This document shows, piece by piece, positions 17,927-25,193 of a DNA stretch of 32,000 nt. Under the pieces are notes generated by a model that searched no databases, was not told the DNA's origin, and worked only from the letters and a program-made list of their open reading frames with translations. A program made the translations under genes and the position numbers. Every line of letters begins with the position of its first letter. The first letter of the stretch is position 1. The stretch is taken from NCBI GenBank assembly GCA_963716945.1, contig OY970322.1, positions 420,001-452,000 on the forward strand. The letters are read 5' to 3'. This DNA comes from Candidatus Saccharimonadota bacterium (GTDB lineage: Bacteria > Patescibacteriota > Saccharimonadia > Saccharimonadales > UBA4665).

Positions 17927-20782
17927 ATGGCACAGACAACCAGCTTAGGGGTAGCACGGCTTTTTACCCCCGCGAAAAGTAAGGCGTACGACCAGCTCAA
18001 ATGGACGAAGCGCGACTCTATTATTAAGAACCCGATGAACGACACCCCTGTATTCGAGCAGAAAGGCGTCGAATTTCCTGAAGGCTGGTCGCTTAATGCC
18101 GTCAACATAGTGGCCCAGAAATATTTCACCGGCACCCCCGGTTCCAAAGAGCGCGAGAGCTCTTTGCGCCACCTGATCGACAGGGTAGTCGACACCGTTA
18201 CCCGCCAGGGCGTCCAAGAGGGTTACTTCAGCAGCGAAACCGAGGCCGAAGACTTCCGAGAAGAACTCAAGTACATCTTGGCGACCCAGCGGGCGGCTTT
18301 CAACAGCCCGGTCTGGTTCAATATCGGCGTGCCGGAGCGCGCCCAGCAGGCCAGCGCCTGTTTCATCCTCGGCATCGAAGACACCATGCCGTCGATTCTT
18401 AATTGGTACGTCGAAGAAGGCATGATCTTCAAGGGCGGTTCCGGCTCGGGCATTAACATCAGCCCGATCAGGTCTTCCGTCGAACGCCTCGGCAAGAGCG
18501 CCGGTACGGCCAGCGGCCCCTTGAGCTTCATGCGCGGCGCCGACGCCAGCGCCGGAGCGATTAAGAGCGGCGGCAAGACCCGCCGGGCAGCCAAGATGGT
18601 CATCCTCAATGTCGACCACCCCGATGTCATGGAATTCATCTGGAGCAAAGCCATCGAAGAGCGCAAAGCCCGCGACCTCCAGACCCTGGGCTGGGACATG
18701 AGCCTTGACGGCAAGGACAGCTTCAGCGTCCAGTACCAGAACGCTAACATTTCAGTCCGCGTTACCGACGACTTCATGCAAGCCGTCCAGGACGACGATG
18801 ACTGGGACCTGCGCGCCGTTACTACGGGCAAGAGCATCAAGAAGGTCAAAGCCCGCGACCTGTTCCGGCAATTCGCCGAAGCCGCCTGGGAGTGTGCCGA
18901 CCCCGGCATGCAGTTCGACACCACCATCAACAAATGGCACACCACCCCGGTCGCCGGACGCATTAACGGCTCCAACCCTTGCAGCGAATACATGCACTTG
19001 GATAACTCGGCCTGCAACCTGGCCAGCATCAACTTGCTGAAGTTCCTCAAAGACGACAATACCTTTGACATCAAGGCTTTCATGCACACCACCGAGCTGA
19101 TTTTCACCGCCCAGGAAATCCTGGTCGGCTACAGCGAATACCCGACCGAGTCTATCGGCAAGAACGCCAAGGCCTACCGCGAACTCGGTATCGGTTACGC
19201 CAACATCGGCGCTTTGCTGATGGCTTTGGGTTTGCCCTATGACTCTGACGAGGGCCGGGCCATCGCGGCCGCCATCACGGCGCTGCTGACCGGTCATTCC
19301 TACGCTACCAGCGCCAAGATTGCCAACCGTGTCGGGCCGTTCAGCGGTTTCGCCAAGGACCGCGAGGGCATGTTGAACGTGCTGCGCATGCACCGGGCCG
19401 AAGTTTCCAAGATTGACGCCAGCCTGGTACCCGAAGAGTTGCTCAGCGCGGCCGCCAGCGCGTGGGACGAAGCTGTCGAACTGGGCGAACTGTACGGTGT
19501 CCGCAACAGCCAGGCCAGCGTTTTGGCGCCGACTGGCACCATCGGCCTGATGATGGATTGTGACACCACCGGTATCGAACCCGACCTTGGCTTGGTTAAA
19601 GTCAAGAAACTGGTCGGCGGCGGTACCATGAGCATCGTCAACCAAACCGTGCCGCGCGCCCTGAAGATCCTGGGCTACACCAAGCCCCAGATCGATGCTA
19701 TCGTCGCTTACATCGACGAAGAGAAGACCATTCTAGGCGCGCCGGCCCTCAAGCGGGAACACGAGGCCGTCTTCGCCTGCTCGATGGGCGACAACTCGAT
19801 CCACTACCTGGGCCACGTCAAGATGATGGCCGCCGTCCAGCCTTTCCTGTCCGGCGCTATCAGCAAGACCGTCAACATGCCCGAAGAAGCCACCGTCGAA
19901 GACATCGAACAGATCCACATCGACGCCTGGAAGATGGGCCTCAAGGCCGTGGCTATTTACCGCGACAACTGCAAGGTCGCCCAGCCGCTCAGCATGGCCA
20001 AGAAGGCCGGTGCTCCGGAGGCCCAGCCGGCTACCGCCGCTGCCGCGACTCCGGTCGAAGCTACCGAAGCCGTCAATGACAAGTATGTCGTCAAAGGCAC
20101 CATCCGCCGCGAACTGCCGAAGTCACGCAACGCCAGGACGATCGCTTTCAAGGTCGCCGGCAGCAAGGGCTACGTCACCGTCGGTGAATTCGAAGACGGC
20201 ACCCCCGGCGAAGTCTTCATCAAGATCGCCAAGCAAGGTTCCACCTTGGCCGGCATCATGGACTCCCTGGCTATCTCGATCAGCTACGGTTTGCAGTACG
20301 GCGTGCCCCTCAAGAGTTACGTCCACGGCCTGACCAGCATGTCTTTCGCGCCGGCCGGCATCACCGATGATCCCGAAATCCGGACGGCTTCCAGCTTGGT
20401 AGATTACGTTTTCCGCCGCCTGGCGCTGAGCTACCTGAGTTTCGACGATTTGCTGGAACTCGGCATGGCCTCTATCGATGATATGCCTACCGACAGCCAG
20501 ACCAGCCTGCTGGCCGAAAGCGACCTTCTGACCGAAGATCCGGTAGTCGCCGCCGAAACCAAGACCGAGGCCCCGTCCGCGGCTGCCGCCCAGCCGGCAC
20601 CTTCGATTAGCTCTGCCGCTCCCCGGACACCGGAGGCCCCGGCCTCGCTATCCGTTAAGAAACCGGCCGCCGTCAAAAGAGACGACACCGCGCCCATCTG
20701 TTACAACTGTGGCAACCAAACCCAGCGCGCCGGCAGCTGCTACGTCTGCACCTCCTGCGGCTCCACCACCGGCTGCAGCTAA
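17927..20782 (+). CDS. nrdJ: Adenosylcobalamin-dependent ribonucleotide reductase, class II
   Basis: RNR barrel motifs (SNPCSEY, CNLASINL), length 951 aa, and the C-terminal CYNCG...CYVCTSCG zinc/redox tail typical of NrdJ. It is co-oriented directly after nrdR. Confidence 0.95.
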   Translation: MAQTTSLGVARLFTPAKSKAYDQLKWTKRDSIIKNPMNDTPVFEQKGVEFPEGWSLNAVNIVAQKYFTGTPGSKERESSLRHLIDRVVDTVTRQGVQEGYFSSETEAEDFREELKYILATQRAAFNSPVWFNIGVPERAQQASACFILGIEDTMPSILNWYVEEGMIFKGGSGSGINISPIRSSVERLGKSAGTASGPLSFMRGADASAGAIKSGGKTRRAAKMVILNVDHPDVMEFIWSKAIEERKARDLQTLGWDMSLDGKDSFSVQYQNANISVRVTDDFMQAVQDDDDWDLRAVTTGKSIKKVKARDLFRQFAEAAWECADPGMQFDTTINKWHTTPVAGRINGSNPCSEYMHLDNSACNLASINLLKFLKDDNTFDIKAFMHTTELIFTAQEILVGYSEYPTESIGKNAKAYRELGIGYANIGALLMALGLPYDSDEGRAIAAAITALLTGHSYATSAKIANRVGPFSGFAKDREGMLNVLRMHRAEVSKIDASLVPEELLSAAASAWDEAVELGELYGVRNSQASVLAPTGTIGLMMDCDTTGIEPDLGLVKVKKLVGGGTMSIVNQTVPRALKILGYTKPQIDAIVAYIDEEKTILGAPALKREHEAVFACSMGDNSIHYLGHVKMMAAVQPFLSGAISKTVNMPEEATVEDIEQIHIDAWKMGLKAVAIYRDNCKVAQPLSMAKKAGAPEAQPATAAAATPVEATEAVNDKYVVKGTIRRELPKSRNARTIAFKVAGSKGYVTVGEFEDGTPGEVFIKIAKQGSTLAGIMDSLAISISYGLQYGVPLKSYVHGLTSMSFAPAGITDDPEIRTASSLVDYVFRRLALSYLSFDDLLELGMASIDDMPTDSQTSLLAESDLLTEDPVVAAETKTEAPSAAAAQPAPSISSAAPRTPEAPASLSVKKPAAVKRDDTAPICYNCGNQTQRAGSCYVCTSCGSTTGCS

Positions 20783-20797
20783 GAGACTTTAGCTAGC

Positions 20798-21064
20798 TTA
20801 AGCCGCGATTTCAGAACCTATAACCTGAGCTACCGCTTCAAAGCCGGACGTTAAGCTAACCGCATTACTTACTACGGTCGTGCCTAAATTGGCTGATGCC
20901 GTACTCACAGGGTATGCGCCTAGTCTGTAGCCGCCATCCATCGGTGTATCGGCGCAAGCCATAGCCGTTTCAATGGCTTTATGGATAGTAGCGTTGTATT
21001 GACCGGTGTGGTCGGCAAATGATCTGACACCGGTGTAAAAATCAATATCTTCTTGGACTGCCAT
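20798..21064 (-). CDS. Hypothetical protein B, 88 aa (second gene of the attenuator-controlled operon)
   Basis: Perfect SD AAGGAG 6 nt upstream of ATG 21064. A/T-ending codon usage. The C-terminal half is rich in small residues. No family recognised. Confidence 0.7.
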   Translation of the reverse strand: MAVQEDIDFYTGVRSFADHTGQYNATIHKAIETAMACADTPMDGGYRLGAYPVSTASANLGTTVVSNAVSLTSGFEAVAQVIGSEIAA

Positions 21065-21108
21065 TTTTGACTCCTTTTAGTTTAGTTAATTTTAGATATA
21101 TATGTTCG

Positions 21109-21495
21109 CTAAGCCGGTCTATCTGTAAACCACCGCATGCGCTTAGCCCTTTCGGCAGCCCCTTCTTCGGGGATAGCCATAATGGTTCGGGCCGGCTCGC
21201 CCTGATCGGCTTTACCGGGGTCGACTCTGGCGCCCAAACCGGCAAAGACTATCTCGGCCGCAAGGTATACGTCTTCAAGATCGGGATCTCGCAAAGCCGC
21301 TTCTTTAAGTTCGTCATTGCTGTGCTCACCAGGCAGCTGGACGTGCAGCTGGAACTTATATTCCTGACCGCCCAGAACCTCGTCAACTGCCGCACGCGCC
21401 ATTGCGAAATCAACGTCAGTCCGGCTTCTGGTTTCAAAGCTCGACGAAGACGCCCCATAAGGATTGGCCGATAATTCTGATCGAATAGCTCCCAT
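21109..21495 (-). CDS. Hypothetical protein A, 128 aa (first gene of the attenuator-controlled operon)
   Basis: SD GGAAGGA sits just upstream of ATG 21495 (the track start, TTG 21507, lies inside the SD/terminator tail). The protein is acidic and soluble-looking. The competing + strand ORF 21067-21474 has a mirror-frame composition. Confidence 0.65.
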   Translation of the reverse strand: MGAIRSELSANPYGASSSSFETRSRTDVDFAMARAAVDEVLGGQEYKFQLHVQLPGEHSNDELKEAALRDPDLEDVYLAAEIVFAGLGARVDPGKADQGEPARTIMAIPEEGAAERAKRMRWFTDRPA

Positions 21496-21508
21496 ATTTC
21501 CTTCCAAA

Positions 21509-21542
21509 ATTAAAAAAATCAGGTTTCGGTTGAAGCCTGATT
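21509..21542 (-). terminator. Intrinsic terminator inside the leader, immediately upstream of the SD of CDS 21109-21495
   Basis: - strand AAUCAGGCUUC-AACC-GAAACCUGAUU (11-bp stem with one G.U pair) followed by UUUUUUUAAUUUU. The ATG is 17 nt after the U run. Confidence 0.75.
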
Positions 21543-21669
21543 ACTTTGCCGGGTTGTGCTGGAGCCGCGTTATTAAGCGCGGGCTAGGCTTCAACCATGG
21601 TGAAGCACAACCCCGTAAGGTTGAGGAGGAGTTGTTCCGACCGGTGCTTCATGGTTTTAGCCATATCAA
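21509..21669 (-). promoter_or_regulatory. ~160-nt cis-regulatory leader RNA (terminator/antiterminator switch; class unknown)
   Basis: GGUUGAAGCCU (21596-21586) is 11/11 complementary to AGGCUUCAACC (21538-21528) in the terminator. Alternative helices are GCUUCA/UGAAGC, GGGUUGUGCU (21613-21604) with AGCACAACCC (21560-21551), and CCAUG-AAGCAC with GUGCUU..CAUGG. See findings. Confidence 0.6.
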
Positions 21670-21675
21670 GTATCT

Positions 21676-21704
21676 TTTATAGCACAGGCAGCCCAGCCAT
21701 ACAA
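21676..21704 (-). promoter_or_regulatory. Promoter of the leader and two-gene operon
   Basis: - strand TTGTAT (21704-21699), 17-nt spacer, TATAAA (21681-21676). Confidence 0.6.
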
Positions 21705-21772
21705 GCCTGGGCGTCCGGCGCGTTGTAATATTTTAAAAGCCGCCATCAGGCTTATGCTAAACTGGACTTATC

Positions 21773-22039
21773 ATGAAAGTGCTTATTCTGTACCGGCCCA
21801 ATTCCGAGCATGGCAGGACGATAGAGGAGTTTATCCATGAATACCAGCGACGGCACCAGTCGGACCGCCTCGAAGTACTCAGTATCGATACCAGGGAGGG
21901 CAGTGCCACGGCCACGCTTTACGACGTCGTCCAGTATCCGGCCATCCTGGTTCTGGAGACAGACGGTTACGTTCAGAAGATCTGGCAGGGCGACAGCTTG
22001 CCGATGATGGACGAGGTCGCCTCTTACGCCCACGTCTAA
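21773..22039 (+). CDS. Small hypothetical protein, 88 aa, possibly thioredoxin-like fold without CxxC
   Basis: The beta-alpha-beta start MKVLILYRPNSEH and YPAILVLE resemble a Trx/glutaredoxin-like fold, but no redox cysteines are present. The functional call is weak. Confidence 0.6.
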   Translation: MKVLILYRPNSEHGRTIEEFIHEYQRRHQSDRLEVLSIDTREGSATATLYDVVQYPAILVLETDGYVQKIWQGDSLPMMDEVASYAHV

Positions 22040-22069
22040 GCTTGTGCTATAGTTAGGGTACAATTTGGC

Positions 22070-22250
22070 AAATCCGTAAGAGCGGCTATCAACCGCGAGG
22101 AGCGGGAAGAAAGGCTGATAAGGCCCAGTAGAACCCGCCGGGCAAGCCCGTTACAGCTGAAACCAAGCGCTTTTGAGGTCACCTCGAAGGAAACCGGATG
22201 GCACCGTCCTGCACCAGGACTCCGGTAACCGACAGGTGATTTTTATTTAC
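22070..22250 (+). promoter_or_regulatory. T-box riboswitch leader (Ile specifier) of ileS
   Basis: Antiterminator-type element: helix CCGGA (22194-22198) / TCCGG (22221-22225), 7-nt bulge TGGCACC (22199-22205), and helix GTCCTG / CAGGAC with loop CAC. The sequence AACCGGATGGCACCGTC resembles the T-box consensus AAnnnGGGUGGUACCGCG. The hairpin GCGG-CTATCAA-CCGC (22082-22096) displays AUC followed by A. A U tract lies at 22240-22249. Confidence 0.7.
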
Positions 22251-22271
22251 AACAGGGGACGCCAACAACGC

Positions 22272-25193
22272 ATGAAATTCAAGCAATCCACCCGCCGCCA
22301 GCCCGCCGTCTACGAGAAGGACCTGGTGCAATACTGGAAGCAGCACCGGACTTTTGAGAAGTCGGTCGAGTCGCGGCCGGCCGCCGACGCCTACGTTTTC
22401 TATGACGGGCCGCCGTTCATCACCGGCGTGCCGCATGTCGGCACGCTGTTATCGAGCATTATCAAGGACGCCGTCCCGCGCTACTGGACGATGAAGGGCA
22501 AGCGCGTCGAACGCGTCTGGGGCTGGGATTGCCACGGCCTGCCGGCCGAAGTTTTCACCGAGCAGAAGCTGGGCATCCACGACCGGCGCGACATCGGTAC
22601 CAAAGTCAGTCTCGAGGAATACATTCTGACTTGCCGCGCCAACATGGTCCAGACCGGCAACGAGTGGGAGGACGTCATCGACCGTATCGGCCGCTGGGTC
22701 GATTTCCGGGGCGCTTATAAGACAATGGACAAAGATTACATGGAATCCGTCTGGTGGGCCTTCAAACAGCTCTATGAGGCCGGTAAGATCTACGAGGGCG
22801 AGAAAGTACTGCTGTACTGTGTCCGCGACGCCACGCCGATCAGCAAAGCCGAAGTCGCCATGGACAACTCCTACCAGGACGTCACCGACCCGAGCGTGTA
22901 CGTCAAGCTCAAGCTCAAGGACAGCGACGCCTCGCTGCTGGCCTGGACGACGACCCCTTGGACTTTGCCGGCCAACACCGCTGCCGCCGTTAATGCCGCC
23001 GAAACCTACGCCGAAGTCAGGGTCGGGGACGAGACCCTAATTATCGCCGAGGAGCTCGTACCAAAAGTATTAACCGATGAAAAACACCAGCCGCTAACCT
23101 ACGAAACCCTACGTACCTACAAGGGCCAAGACCTGGTCGGCAAAGGCTACGAACCGCTCTTCGAAGACCGCGGCCGCAACGCCCACCGGGTCTGGGCCGC
23201 CGACTACGTTACCTTAGAAGAGGGCACCGGCATCGTCCACCTGGCCCCGGCTTACGGCGAAGAAGATTACTGGCTGTCGAGGCAGGAAGGCTTCCCGCTG
23301 GTCCAGAACCTCGACGACAGCGGTTTCTACACCGAAGGCGAGTGGCAGGGCCAGTACGTTTGGGACGCCAACAAGCCGATCGCCAAGACCCTCCACGAAC
23401 GCGGCGTTATCTGGAAAATCGACTACATCACGCACAGCTACCCCCATTGCCACCGCTGCGGTACCAAACTGATGTACCGCGCCCACCCCAGTTGGTTTAT
23501 GGATATAAACGGCCAGCGCGAGCAAATGCTCGCGCAAAACGCCTCGGTCAACTGGTTCCCGGCCCACATCAAACAGGGCCGTTTCGCCAAAACCGTCGAA
23601 TCGGCGCCGGACTGGAACATCAGCCGCGACCGCTTCTGGGCGACGGCCATGCCGGTCTGGAAAGGCACCGATAAGAGTGGTAAAGAGCACATCAAGGTCA
23701 TCGGCAGCTACGCCGAGCTCAAGGAGTTATCAGGTAAAGAGCTGGAAGATTACCACCGGCCCTGGATTGACGATGTAGCCTTCACAATAGACGGCGTTGA
23801 ATACAAACGTATCGACAAGGTTTTGGACTGCTGGTTCGAGAGCGGCTCGATGCCGTTCGCCCAATTCCATTACCCGTTCGAGAACACCGACAAGTTCGAG
23901 CAGAATTTCCCCGGTGATTTCATTGCCGAATATGTCGGCCAAGTCCGCGCCTGGTTCTACTACCTGCACGCCGTCTCGGTCGGCCTGTTCGATACCAAAG
24001 CTTTCAACAACGTCGTCGTCACCGGTACGCTGGCCGGCAACGACGGCCGCAAGATGAGTAAGAGCTTCGGCAACTACACCGACCCCAACGAACTGATGGA
24101 CAAATACAGCGCCGACGCCCTCAGGTTCCTGCTCCTGGGCTCGCCGGTCTTAAACGGCGAAGACGCCGTCCTCCAAGATAAGGACGTGGCCGATACCAGC
24201 CGCAAACTGGCCATGGTCTGGAACATGTACGACTTCTTCACGCTCTACGCCGACGTCGACGGCTGGGAGTGGGACGGCAGCCTTGAAGACCCGGCGCCGG
24301 ACCTGGGCAACCCGCTTGACCAATGGATCGTCAGCCGCGTCCACCAGCTTAGCGGCGAAGTTGACGGCCACATGCAGCGTTATGACCTGCCGAACGCCCT
24401 CAAGCCCGTCCTGCCGTTCATCGATGACGCCAGCAACTGGTACGTCCGCCGCAGCCGCAAACGTTTCTGGAAGAGCGACAACGACGGCGACAAAGCCGCG
24501 GCCTACCGCACGCTGCACTATGTCCTGGTCCAGCTAAGCCTTATCATGGCGCCGTTCACGCCGTTTATGGCCGAGGAGCTTTATCGCCGGCTGACCGGCG
24601 GCGAATCGGTCCACCTCTGCGACTGGCCGGCCGCCGGCCACGTCAACGAACTGATAATCAAGGACATGGCCAACACGCGGGAAGCGATCACGGTCGGTTT
24701 GGCCCAGCGCGCCCAAGCCGGCCTGAAGGTCCGCCAGCCGCTGGCTTCAGCTACCGTCTTCTGGGACTCTTTCGCCAGCCGGCCGCCGCAGGAGCTGGAC
24801 GAATACCTGGCCGTAATCAGGGAAGAGCTCAACGTCAAAGAAGTTAAGTTCAACCATCTTGAAAACTCTTTGCCCGGCAGCGTATCGGTCAGTCTCGACC
24901 TCAAGCTGACGCCCGAACTCAAGCGCGAAGGCCTGGCCCGCGAAGTCATCCGCCATGTCCAGCAGGCCCGCAAACAGGCCGGCCTCCAGGTCGACGACCG
25001 CATAGACCTCCGTCTTGAGTCCGACAGCCCCCGGCTGCGCGCTTTACTAAAAGACGCCGCTTTAACGGATACGATCAAGCAGGAAACGCTGGCCGTCTCG
25101 CTGAACCGGCACCGGCCGGACGGCTTCACAAGCACCGTACAGGTCGACGGCCACGGCCTTACGCTCAGCTTGGCTAAGGCAAGCAGGCAATAA
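22272..25193 (+). CDS. ileS: Isoleucyl-tRNA synthetase
   Basis: HIGH-type motif (PHVGT), KMSKS, and the class Ia editing and anticodon-binding architecture. The start is taken as ATG 22272 (MKFKQS). The track start at 22173 lies inside the T-box leader. Confidence 0.95.
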   Translation: MKFKQSTRRQPAVYEKDLVQYWKQHRTFEKSVESRPAADAYVFYDGPPFITGVPHVGTLLSSIIKDAVPRYWTMKGKRVERVWGWDCHGLPAEVFTEQKLGIHDRRDIGTKVSLEEYILTCRANMVQTGNEWEDVIDRIGRWVDFRGAYKTMDKDYMESVWWAFKQLYEAGKIYEGEKVLLYCVRDATPISKAEVAMDNSYQDVTDPSVYVKLKLKDSDASLLAWTTTPWTLPANTAAAVNAAETYAEVRVGDETLIIAEELVPKVLTDEKHQPLTYETLRTYKGQDLVGKGYEPLFEDRGRNAHRVWAADYVTLEEGTGIVHLAPAYGEEDYWLSRQEGFPLVQNLDDSGFYTEGEWQGQYVWDANKPIAKTLHERGVIWKIDYITHSYPHCHRCGTKLMYRAHPSWFMDINGQREQMLAQNASVNWFPAHIKQGRFAKTVESAPDWNISRDRFWATAMPVWKGTDKSGKEHIKVIGSYAELKELSGKELEDYHRPWIDDVAFTIDGVEYKRIDKVLDCWFESGSMPFAQFHYPFENTDKFEQNFPGDFIAEYVGQVRAWFYYLHAVSVGLFDTKAFNNVVVTGTLAGNDGRKMSKSFGNYTDPNELMDKYSADALRFLLLGSPVLNGEDAVLQDKDVADTSRKLAMVWNMYDFFTLYADVDGWEWDGSLEDPAPDLGNPLDQWIVSRVHQLSGEVDGHMQRYDLPNALKPVLPFIDDASNWYVRRSRKRFWKSDNDGDKAAAYRTLHYVLVQLSLIMAPFTPFMAEELYRRLTGGESVHLCDWPAAGHVNELIIKDMANTREAITVGLAQRAQAGLKVRQPLASATVFWDSFASRPPQELDEYLAVIREELNVKEVKFNHLENSLPGSVSVSLDLKLTPELKREGLAREVIRHVQQARKQAGLQVDDRIDLRLESDSPRLRALLKDAALTDTIKQETLAVSLNRHRPDGFTSTVQVDGHGLTLSLAKASRQ

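Follow-up and report, generated by a model that had tools for sequence, protein, structure and literature searches.

The minus strand of the window (the whole 32,000-nt stretch of saccharibacterial DNA analyzed here) carries, at positions 21509-21704, a leader that was originally predicted to be an unclassified terminator/antiterminator RNA, either a novel riboswitch or an attenuator. This raises the question of whether the leader is a genuine structured element and, if so, what it responds to. We find that it is a real structured element, and very probably a transcription attenuator of the trpL/leuL type, mediated by the ribosome and responsive to leucine. The attenuator family, found in reduced-genome Saccharibacteria, is undescribed, and its kind (leuL/trpL-type) is already known. 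Its features, and those of the genes behind it, are:

21676-21704, minus strand: promoter read from the sequence, with -35 TTGTAT (21704-21699), a 17-nt spacer and an extended -10 TGcTATAAA (21684-21676)
21584-21664, minus strand: leader-peptide ORF of 26 codons plus UAG, encoding MAKTMKHRSEQLLLNLTGLCFTMVEA*; ATG, frame and stop kept in 37/37 homologues
21644-21662, minus strand: region 1, the P1 5' arm (anti-antiterminator), G GCU AAA ACC AUG AAG CAC, within the ORF and reaching up to the G of its AUG
21623-21631, minus strand: regulatory Leu codons CUC CUC CUC (codons 12-14)
21619-21617 and 21610-21608, minus strand: additional Leu codons CUU (codon 16) and UUG (codon 19), respectively
21604-21613, minus strand: helix B 5' strand, GGGUUGUGCU, comprising codons Gly18-Leu19-Cys20 and the first base of Phe21
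21587-21608, minus strand: region 2, the P1 3' arm, GUGCUUCACCAUGGUUGAAGCC, overlapping the 5' strands of helix B and of the antiterminator
21586-21596, minus strand: antiterminator (helix C) 5' strand, GGUUGAAGCCU
21563-21585, minus strand: central hairpin D, AGCCCGCG-cuuaauaa-CGCGGCU, directly 3' of the stop codon
21551-21560, minus strand: helix B 3' strand, AGCACAACCC, non-coding
21528-21538, minus strand: antiterminator 3' strand, AGGCUUCAACC, which is the 5' arm and loop of the terminator
21512-21541, minus strand: intrinsic terminator, stem 21541-21518 (AUCAGG-c-UUC aacc GAA-a-CCUGAU) and U7 (21518-21512)
21109-21505, minus strand: Shine-Dalgarno sequence (SD) GGAAGG (21505-21500), followed by protein A (128 aa, 21495-21109), the operon's first gene under attenuator control
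20798-21064, minus strand: second small gene (88 aa, DTPxDGGY motif), convergent with the end of nrdJ (20782)

Structure and conservation of the leader RNA

The prediction that no known RNA class would match was upheld by the covariance-model scan that had been proposed as a check. At gathering score, Rfam 15 reported only 5S and 23S rRNA across the whole window and no leader family, and a search of region 21400-21800 at E <= 10 gave just three chance-level miRNA or thermometer matches, with no T-box, riboswitch or Leu_leader. No T-box was matched by Rfam in the trx-ileS spacer, and a tRNA scan of the 32-kb window yielded no genes. An identity as 6S, SRP or another housekeeping RNA was rejected because it has no Rfam support and because the ORF and the terminator logic account for the conservation.

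The folded leader has an energy of -49.5 kcal/mol (z = -3.2), lower than 200/200 dinucleotide shuffles, and every helix of the original prediction was recovered in place on the minus strand. A search for homologues of protein A, suggested as the route to related leaders, retrieved only the protein itself with a word index. Related leaders were found by other routes, namely synteny, a DNA pattern scan and homologues of isopropylmalate synthase (LeuA). These gave 37 distinct homologous leaders, all in Saccharibacteria-type loci, 8 of which came from an independent sample of LeuA homologue loci. Two metagenomic pattern matches (L082 and L110) were discarded as chance matches without a leader. Among the other 77 Saccharibacteria ileS loci, most of which have a nrdJ-trx gap of just 30-200 nt, no diverged leader copy was detected.

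Since the helices are retained, with compensatory changes, across the 37 homologous sequences, we judge the structure to be beyond chance. Pairs were counted in model-based alignments (A5 and A6); the MAFFT alignment (A4) was excluded, as it misaligns hairpin D and the 3' arm of the terminator. In these alignments, the covariation of helix B, the antiterminator, hairpin D and the terminator lies above both shuffle and slide controls.

The P1 duplex (21662-21644 with 21608-21587) has an energy of -24.5 kcal/mol, and the pairing predicted within it for the helix B segment (UGAAGCAC/GUGCUUCA) was recovered by an inverted-repeat search. P1-like duplexes form in 27/27 homologues tested (mean z = -4.2 relative to shuffled region 1) and 89% of cells are paired, compared with 21-42% in slid controls; P1 covariation is not significant and not above the shuffle control.

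The alternative partner of the same segment, a 10/10 pairing of 21613-21604 with 21560-21551 (helix B), was also recovered by repeat search, and 98.4% of its cells are paired in the 37 sequences. Three of its pairs are compensatory: UA->CG in 7 sequences, UA->CG in a paralogous copy with isoleucine codons, and GC->CG in L122. One-sided variants of the 3' strand are nearly all G.U-compatible (AGUAC.., AGCAU.., AGCGC.., AGCACG.., ..AAUCC), and in a few sequences the terminal pair alone is lost.

Repeat searches likewise recovered the predicted 11/11 antiterminator (21596-21586 with 21538-21528; 97.2% of cells paired in the 37 sequences) and the local hairpin that can trap its 5' strand (GCUUCA-ccauggu-UGAAGC). 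Three antiterminator pairs are compensatory, in L009, L122 and L119; in L119 the shared strand changes at one position together with both of its partners, the antiterminator strand and the 3' arm of the terminator. The central hairpin occurs in all homologues despite very different sequences, with compensatory changes at 7/7 pairs, and is possibly an RNA-polymerase pause hairpin.

For the terminator, the predicted U7 is present whereas the predicted 11-bp stem is not: the stem consists of 6 + 3 pairs flanking a 1x1 mismatch and, at -8.8 kcal/mol, is slightly weaker. Across 27 homologues the hairpin ranges from -7.6 to -15.6 kcal/mol and is always followed by U5-U7. In the 37 sequences 90% of its cells are paired and 6/8 pairs are compensatory. 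Its AACC loop is conserved though unpaired in the terminator.

The prediction of a helix that crosses the antiterminator was thus borne out comparatively, as helices B and C interleave (B5' < C5' < B3' < C3') and both covary. With the terminator, antiterminator, central hairpin and crossing helix all having comparative support, and with P1 complementarity kept in the homologues, the "attenuator" half of the original prediction stands.

A leucine-codon ORF within the leader

The 5' half of the leader is occupied by an ORF of 25-29 codons across homologues, in whose frame the conserved CUCCUCCUC reads as three Leu codons. The pattern M-x6-9-LLL(L)-x-L-x-GLCF-x-x-VEA is kept in 27 pattern-ascertained homologues and in the 8 sampled independently, the latter with small variants (e.g., RLCF, IAEA/MIEA). 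Conservation is of the coding type. Entropy summed over codon positions 1, 2 and 3 amounts to 12.4, 14.0 and 20.4, the third being the most variable, and indels within the ORF are multiples of 3. Columns of the Leu run change at third positions, with TTG as the sole other change. Because the run in the 27 homologues uses only the Leu codons CUC (71), CUU (13), CUA (7), CUG (2) and UUG (2), this variation is entirely synonymous. CUC or CUU thus make up 84/95 run codons, whereas CUG is the preferred Leu codon (44%) in four long genes of the window. No leader copy has lost the ATG, the frame or the Leu-rich tract; the run itself is broken in L112 (LGLFLGL), L122 (LRLGL) and L102.

The predicted promoter, TTGTAT-17-TATAAA, is present, and its -10 box (TATAAA, 21681-21676) is preceded by TG. 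This box ends 11 nt from the ATG of the leader ORF in the window, and a TTGC...TGnTATAA motif lies 6-11 nt 5' of the ATG in nearly all homologues. Given this short distance, the ORF is probably leaderless or near-leaderless, the putative transcript start being placed by promoter spacing. A consensus promoter/terminator scanner reported neither the leader promoter nor the leader terminator, which we attribute to its thresholds, as the -35 box matches only 3/6 positions and the terminator stem has an internal mismatch.

The position of the stop codon is also constrained. In the window, the first base of the UAG is the last U of the antiterminator 5' strand, and in 22/27 homologues the stop codon likewise begins at the strand's final base, the other 5/27 having it 9-12 nt further 3'. 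The C-terminus of the peptide (GLCF..VEA) is nearly invariant and coincides exactly with the nucleotides of helix B and the antiterminator, so that RNA pairing can explain its conservation.

A paralogous copy (L084:872-1033), with its own -10 box and ATG, encodes MFMSREAIATSIIPRITGSCFTMVEA, in which Ile codons stand where the Leu run was. It retains the RNA fold through the compensatory U-A -> C-G change in helix B, and constitutes a rare natural re-specification of an attenuator.

These observations bear on whether the leader could be a metabolite-binding riboswitch, in which a ligand, without a ribosome, would stabilize one of two states, P1/terminator or pseudoknot/antiterminator. Such a sensor would fit a compact, well-folded leader (z as above) with mutually exclusive helices, a strongly covarying helix B across the antiterminator and no match to a known class. 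However, conservation outside the helices is codon-periodic and accounted for by the ORF, and the homologous leaders have no conserved nucleotides beyond helices and ORF that could line a ligand pocket; neither the D loop nor the 8-19-nt A-rich linker is constrained in sequence or in length. The placement of the stop codon would be left unexplained, and an exchange of Leu for Ile codons with the fold kept would be expected of a sensor that reads codons rather than of a ligand pocket. We therefore consider a riboswitch extremely improbable. The original suggestion of one had overlooked the conserved Leu-run ORF with its stop abutting the antiterminator strand. The resemblance it noted of the loop UUACGG to a guanidine-II loop was rejected, as these nucleotides are coding sequence (codons 16-18) and vary freely (UUAAGG, UUCCGG, UUAGCG, UUCUGG). 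The family is missing from Rfam, and its addition would stop such leaders from being called novel riboswitches.

Attenuation model and relation to known leaders

In the attenuation model, a sigma-70-type promoter would start the transcript at the AUG or a few bases 5' of it, and a ribosome would read the 26-codon leader peptide with its Leu residues at positions 12-14, 16 and 19. When charged tRNA-Leu is ample, the ribosome would reach the UAG and cover the antiterminator 5' strand (21596-21586), because the stop codon overlaps the end of that strand. The terminator (21541-21512) could then form, ending transcription 16 nt before protein A. With no ribosome loaded, the start of the ORF (21662-21644) would pair with 21608-21587 to form P1; as P1 also sequesters the antiterminator strand, termination would be the default state. 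We infer that scarcity acts through a ribosome stalled in the Leu tract, which would block P1 and leave the 5' strand GGUUGAAGCCU free to pair with AGGCUUCAACC once the latter is made, pre-empting the terminator and allowing read-through. Helix B may form together with the antiterminator in an H-type pseudoknot, keeping the antiterminator strand from P1 and from the local trap hairpin.

To model ribosome occupancy, we folded just the stretch of RNA lying 3' of the ribosome. A ribosome placed at the stop codon yielded the terminator in 27/27 homologues, and one placed on the Leu run yielded the antiterminator in 26-27/27, provided that helix B was allowed alongside it. In a nested energy model helices B and C are mutually exclusive, and at pseudoknot-free equilibrium with the ribosome on codons 12-14, B + D + terminator (-33.1 kcal/mol) is favored over antiterminator + D (-26.2 kcal/mol). 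For read-through to be favored in this model, the A site must lie near codons 16-19. Thus, the attenuator model requires either a pseudoknot of B and C or kinetic control.

The closest known counterparts are the enterobacterial leuL leader (Rfam Leu_leader, RF00512) and the trpL/hisL/thrL/pheL class. As here, these combine a short ORF containing a run of cognate, often non-preferred codons with a 2:3 antiterminator and, directly 5' of the first biosynthetic gene, a 3:4 intrinsic terminator; P1 is the candidate counterpart of their 1:2 protector. In relatives of the window the first biosynthetic gene is leuA (2-isopropylmalate synthase); the window itself has two small proteins instead. The leaders differ from this class in having no sequence or covariance-model similarity to it and in their apparently leaderless ORF, which is SD-led in the leuL class. 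Furthermore, their regulatory codons are placed in the loop that separates regions 1 and 2, not within region 1, their hosts belong to the phylum Saccharibacteria (CPR), and an additional covarying 10-bp helix, B, spans the antiterminator, a departure from the textbook three-hairpin scheme.

A second likeness is to the actinobacterial LEU element upstream of leuA, which Seliverstov et al. (2005; PMC1262725) propose to be the site of an RNA-binding regulator. As described there, it has a Leu-run ORF 5' of the isopropylmalate synthase gene, as here, and after the ORF two helices in pseudoknot topology, an arrangement that the interleaved helices B and C may share. The same paper presents it as terminator-less, with the Leu run and the leuA SD pairing as its closing base stem, whereas a canonical terminator is found in every copy of our leader. 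No equivalent base stem could be distinguished here: Leu-run:SD pairing averages -8.4 kcal/mol compared with -6.7 kcal/mol for SDs of unrelated genes, a fraction of typically about 0.4 of controls lies at or below the observed value, and we regard the pairing as generic anti-SD complementarity. Mutations in the leader codons of Streptomyces leuA, according to this source (PMC1262725), behaved unlike the prediction of classical attenuation, so that a Leu-run ORF is by itself no proof of mechanism.

The leader could accordingly be read as a protein- or tRNA-dependent antiterminator, T-box-like or a site for an RNA-binding regulator, in which the Leu-run ORF is incidental. In its favor, helix B is conserved and covaries yet is not needed in the 1:2 / 2:3 / 3:4 scheme, and protein binding has been argued for the LEU element (PMC1262725). 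No T-box matched even at the permissive threshold given above, however, and no candidate regulator gene recurs beside the element. The frame, the synonymous variation, the Ile swap and the stop position are strong evidence for the ORF, and we hold this reading to be highly unlikely.

Within the attenuation model, we entertain a speculative extension that we think rather unlikely to hold in full: the antiterminated state would be a bipartite H-type pseudoknot (B + C around D) and not a simple 2:3 hairpin, and the element would be a relative of the actinobacterial LEU element, exchanged between Saccharibacteria and their hosts. Saccharibacteria are episymbionts of Actinobacteria, a lifestyle that makes such exchange conceivable. 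If this were true, the terminator-retaining saccharibacterial version with its Ile paralogue would be a mechanistic key to the LEU element. Ultra-reduced CPR bacteria would then sense amino-acid supply via a re-programmable, leaderless ribosome sensor that moves as a module ahead of interchangeable cargo genes.

A leaderless short ORF as first cistron also characterizes the mycobacterial polycysteine leaders, as set out by Canestrari et al. (bioRxiv 10.1101/834739). There, as in our model, the ribosome stalls in amino-acid-specific codons, remodels the downstream RNA and controls the operon. Set against the mechanism reported there, our leader has an intrinsic terminator and an antiterminator, pointing to transcriptional control, and its codons specify Leu rather than Cys.

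Genes behind the leader

An SD-bearing gene on the same strand always lies within about 15-35 nt 3' of the leader. In the window, the SD and ATG of protein A follow closely behind the terminator as predicted, with the ATG at 21495, 16 nt after U7, and the deduction that the operon can be expressed only by read-through holds. An isopropylmalate-synthase-family gene is found 3' of the leader, directly or after small ORFs, in about 18/29 metagenomic loci; other loci have small ORFs only. The leader is located immediately 5' of the gene in 8/8 loci fetched through LeuA-homologue proteins alone. This LeuA-family cargo is of three types that are only 23-37% identical to each other. A protein search recovered 262 isopropylmalate-synthase-family clusters at E <= 1e-30, and Saccharibacteria or Patescibacteria was the commonest label among its few organism-named hits.

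Saccharibacteria, like the rest of the CPR, are commonly portrayed as lacking both amino-acid biosynthesis and much of the regulation that goes with it. An attenuator that is widely conserved before isopropylmalate-synthase-family genes, with strong covariation support, suggests that Saccharibacteria monitor charged tRNA-Leu and tune a branched-chain-type enzyme.

No LeuA-like gene was detected in the 32-kb window by tblastn with five LeuA-family types, and we therefore rejected the idea that protein A and the 88-aa ORF are remnants of a leuA pseudogene. The window resembles L052 in having no LeuA-family gene behind the leader. The ancestral LeuA-family cargo appears to be missing here, in which case the attenuator would govern only the two small proteins.

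These two proteins, for which Pfam and NCBIfam contain no family match, recur in operons with this leader. Behind copies of this leader, homologues of protein A are encoded in L085 (36% identity, E = 2e-18) as well as L084/L097, and those of the 88-aa protein in L084/L097, L087, L090, L095 and L099 (jackhmmer E = 1e-9 to 5e-19). The attenuator marks the two genes as a predicted leucine-regulated operon.

The variety of cargo might instead suggest an independent small RNA, about 155 nt long, that has its own promoter and terminator and either acts in trans or encodes a functional 26-aa peptide, its location 5' of variable genes then being incidental. In keeping with this, the leader (70-85% nucleotide identity) is more conserved than the downstream cargo, which differs among loci and, in the window and L052, includes no LeuA-family gene; the peptide C-terminus is also almost invariant. 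Yet RNA pairing explains that invariance, and neither the same-strand gene always found nearby nor the position of the element directly upstream in all eight LeuA-homologue loci would be expected of an independent RNA. We regard this reading as very improbable; the terminated leader may still accumulate, so that such an RNA is compatible with attenuation.

Separately, we observed that the two small genes of the window are unannotated or mis-started.

A probable leucine-codon attenuator in the window leader

The leader on the minus strand at 21704-21509 is correctly called an attenuator, not a novel riboswitch, and is a well-supported new family with a classical attenuation mechanism in an unexpected phylum. 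The original prediction left both readings standing; covarying helices support the attenuator, and a Leu-codon ORF together with a Leu-to-Ile swap that keeps the fold speaks against the riboswitch. The underlying observation is confirmed. Both boxes of the proposed promoter (TTGTAT-17-TATAAA) are in place, and an inverted-repeat search recovered the antiterminator (C), a helix crossing it (B), the anti-antiterminator (P1) and a local trap hairpin. The terminator and its U7 are also present, with an interrupted stem in place of the 11 bp claimed.

Features of the window leader (all minus strand)
21704-21699: -35 box TTGTAT, followed by a 17-nt spacer
21684-21676: extended -10 box TGcTATAAA
21664 (AUG) to 21586-21584 (UAG): leader-peptide ORF encoding MAKTMKHRSEQLLLNLTGLCFTMVEA
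21662-21644 (ORF start) with 21608-21587: arms of P1
21613-21604 with 21560-21551: helix B, 10/10 pairing
21596-21586 with 21538-21528: antiterminator C, 11/11 pairing
21541-21518: terminator hairpin, 6 + 3 pairs flanking a 1x1 mismatch, -8.8 kcal/mol, then U7
21495: ATG of protein A, 16 nt beyond U7 and preceded by the Shine-Dalgarno (SD) sequence GGAAGG

The leader folds more stably than 200 of 200 shuffles (z = -3.2). It has no Rfam 15 match at the gathering score and no relevant one at E <= 10.

The original prediction described the helices rightly but overlooked the conserved leader-peptide ORF, in which the invariant CUCCUCCUC supplies three in-frame Leu codons. Start, frame and Leu-rich tract are kept in every homologue (e.g., MAETMKQRLDLLLLTLKGLCFTMVEA, MATTVTQAPLLLLGLPGLCFTTVEA and MVLVKKQLDLLLLSLNGLCFNIAEA). 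Across 27 homologues the Leu run uses CUC 71 times, CUU 13, CUA 7, CUG 2 and UUG 2, all changes being synonymous and codon position 2 invariant; the long genes of the window favour CUG for Leu (44%). Summed column entropy over the ORF is 12.4, 14.0 and 20.4 for codon positions 1, 2 and 3, and its indels are multiples of three, whereas loops outside the coding part take any length. In nearly all copies a promoter-like motif (TTGC...TGnTATAA) ends 6-11 nt 5' of the AUG, with no SD between the two; thus, the ORF is probably leaderless.

The element has the structural hallmarks and probably the mode of working of the enterobacterial leuL/trpL class, but no sequence or model similarity to leuL/trpL or to any curated Rfam family. 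Judged by its described features, the most intriguing possible relative is the actinobacterial LEU element, which shares a Leu-run ORF upstream of leuA and perhaps a pseudoknot arrangement but lacks the terminator present here; its base stem between Leu run and SD is unsupported in the window family (PMC1262725). A leaderless sensor ORF, probable here, is common to the mycobacterial poly-Cys short-ORF attenuators, which are reported to control access to the ribosome-binding site and not a terminator (10.1101/834739). Literature searches returned no report of attenuators or isopropylmalate synthase in Saccharibacteria. Two features of the family are of note, namely the pseudoknot topology involving helix B and a paralogue reprogrammed from Leu to Ile.

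Homologues and comparative support

Because a word-index protein search detected no relatives of protein A, the comparison was made via synteny and the RNA itself. Searches with nhmmer and BLAST located the leader at the corresponding site in three of 80 genome loci (L002, L052 and L009), at 82-84% nucleotide identity to the window, above expectation given 67-76% IleRS protein identity. Of 31 metagenomic loci matched by a 21-base core pattern, 29 carry the leader, mostly complete (contig ends truncate a few), and two are chance matches. Since this pattern fixes part of two helices, a second, RNA-independent sample was drawn by homologue search with the protein downstream of the leader in metagenomic locus L103, which resembles LeuA (2-isopropylmalate synthase). 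In all eight contigs obtained (proteins 40-58% identical), the leader lies directly upstream of the LeuA-like gene. The three sources yielded 37 distinct sequences, and pairs were counted in their model-based alignment (A6).

Helix support in 37 sequences
Antiterminator C: 97.2% of cells paired; 3 compensatory pairs (L009, U-A to C-G; L122, G-C to A-U; L119, U-A to C-G)
Helix B: 98.4% of cells paired; 3 compensatory pairs (seven sequences, U-A to C-G; the Ile copy, U-A to C-G; L122, G-C to C-G)
Terminator: 90% of cells paired; compensatory change in 6 of 8 pairs
Central hairpin D: 93% of cells paired; compensatory change in 7 of 7 pairs

For all four helices, these measures exceed a column shuffle (observed value reached in 0-6 of 500 shuffles) and a slid-partner control. 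In L119 the terminator 3' arm is altered alongside the antiterminator pair, tying three strands together. One-sided changes in B are nearly all G.U-compatible, and a few sequences lose the terminal pair only. The terminator loop AACC is conserved yet unpaired there; its partner in the antiterminator is GGUU. P1 complementarity occurs in 27 of 27 homologues (mean z = -4.2 with shuffled 5' arms as the control), with 89% of cells paired versus 21-42% in slid controls; its covariation is not significant.

Ribosome position and the read-through state

In 22 of 27 homologues the final base of the antiterminator 5' strand is also the first base of the stop codon, and in the remaining five the stop codon begins 9-12 nt further on, so that a terminating ribosome would cover that strand. 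We modelled occupancy by folding only RNA 3' of the ribosome footprint. With the stop codon in the A site, all 27 homologues form the terminator; with no ribosome, 18 of 27 form P1 plus the terminator. With a Leu-run codon in the A site, the antiterminator forms in 26-27 of 27 if B may coexist with C, whereas a strictly nested model gives the terminator. In the window, that nested model puts B + D + terminator at -33.1 kcal/mol versus -26.2 for C + D, and read-through wins only when the A site is near codons 16-19.

The strands of B and C interleave (B5' < C5' < B3' < C3'). The first linker is 7 nt long, the second consists of hairpin D and CC, and the third is an A-rich stretch of 8-19 nt; general pseudoknot geometry makes an H-type pseudoknot look feasible. 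We favour a model in which B plus C would jointly form the read-through state. Kinetics would also favour C when its 5' strand is free, since the antiterminator 3' strand is made before the terminator 3' arm.

In metagenomic loci L084 and L097, the Leu leader and two small ORFs are followed by a second attenuator copy (L084:872-1033 = L097:865-1027, plus strand) that has a separate TGGTATAGT -10 box, 6 nt ahead of an ATG. The copy is complete and its ATG probably leaderless; thus, Leu- and Ile-type attenuators stand in tandem within one operon. Its peptide, MFMSREAIATSIIPRITGSCFTMVEA (L084:872-1033), has Ile codons (AUU AUU .. AUU) in place of the Leu run, and Leu19 has become Ser (UUG to UCG) with a matching A-to-G in the helix B 3' strand that repairs the pairing. 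A codon change with the fold preserved is what a codon-reading sensor, not a ligand-binding RNA, predicts. The gene that follows is a full-length LeuA/CimA type (534 aa).

Cargo genes and genomic setting

The best NCBIfam matches of genes downstream of the leader (cargo) are 2-isopropylmalate synthase models. In about 18 of 29 metagenomic loci a LeuA-family gene follows, either directly or beyond one or two small ORFs. At least three types occur, with 23-37% protein identity between them; the leader is 70-85% identical in nucleotides ahead of all, the regulatory module being more conserved than its cargo. The cargo groups are L088/L002, L107, L109, L105, L090 versus L085, L097 versus L103, L092, L091 and L081, and the LeuA_dimer regulatory domain is present in some types and absent from others. 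Adjacent leuB, leuC or leuD genes were found in none of the loci examined. The L103 protein has 262 clusters of HMGL-like/LeuA-family relatives at E <= 1e-30; few are named by organism, and those few are most often labelled Saccharibacteria or Patescibacteria, which is unexpected in a lineage usually portrayed as incapable of amino-acid synthesis. In L121 (2501-4259) a LeuA-family gene seems to be in two pieces, an HMGL-like ORF of 485 aa and a separate LeuA_dimer ORF of 97 aa, which could be a frameshift or pseudogene.

The window's 32 kb hold no LeuA-like gene. Its leader precedes protein A (128 aa, 21495-21109, minus) and ORF88 (88 aa, 21064-20798, minus), neither with a Pfam or NCBIfam match. 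They represent two fast-evolving families, one ending in ...RPA and the other with a DTPxDGG(Y/F) motif; in metagenomic relatives, members of both recur between this leader and genes of the leuA family. Homologues of protein A are the first post-leader ORF of L085 (36% identity, E = 2e-18) and that of L084/L097; those of ORF88 (DTPxDGGY) are post-leader ORFs in L084/L097, L087, L090, L095 and L099. The window looks like the L097 layout (leader, family-a ORF, family-b ORF, second attenuator, leuA) minus its second attenuator and leuA. The public NCBI/ENA record gives protein A as 97 aa from Met32 and a Logan assembly as 128 aa; we favour the longer form from its SD 5-10 nt ahead of the ATG and L085 homology from residue 6.

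The window source is a Saccharibacterium, its IleRS being 64-76% identical to that of 80 Saccharibacteria/Saccharimonadales genome bins. There, nrdR and nrdJ are usually followed, 30-200 nt on, by a thioredoxin-like 88-aa gene (trx) and then ileS; in the window, nrdJ and trx are 991 nt apart, and the segment between them bears, on the opposite strand, the leader and two small ORFs. This junction (window 20782-21773), a gap of only 30-200 nt in most Saccharibacteria, is a variable insertion site: the cassette occupies it on the opposite strand in the window, L002, L052 and several metagenomic contigs, and L004, L007, L031, L036 and L050 carry other inserts of 570-820 nt. The L121 cassette is oriented like nrdJ (nrdJ, leader, ORF80, HMGL-like gene, LeuA_dimer fragment, trx, ileS). 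Immediately 5' of the most diverged leader copy, L119 encodes an integrase/transposase-type gene (rve domain; 1269-2237, minus), which may be relevant to cassette movement.

Although translational T-boxes occur at actinobacterial ileS genes, neither a T-box nor any other Rfam family matches the roughly 235-nt spacer from trx to the likely ileS start (MKFKQ...; window 22039-22275, plus). The TTG-start ORF listed from 22173 is probably an over-extended version of ileS. A scan across the 32-kb window found no tRNA genes; its first 454 nt (plus) hold the 23S rRNA 3' end (1-104) and a 5S rRNA gene (340-454).
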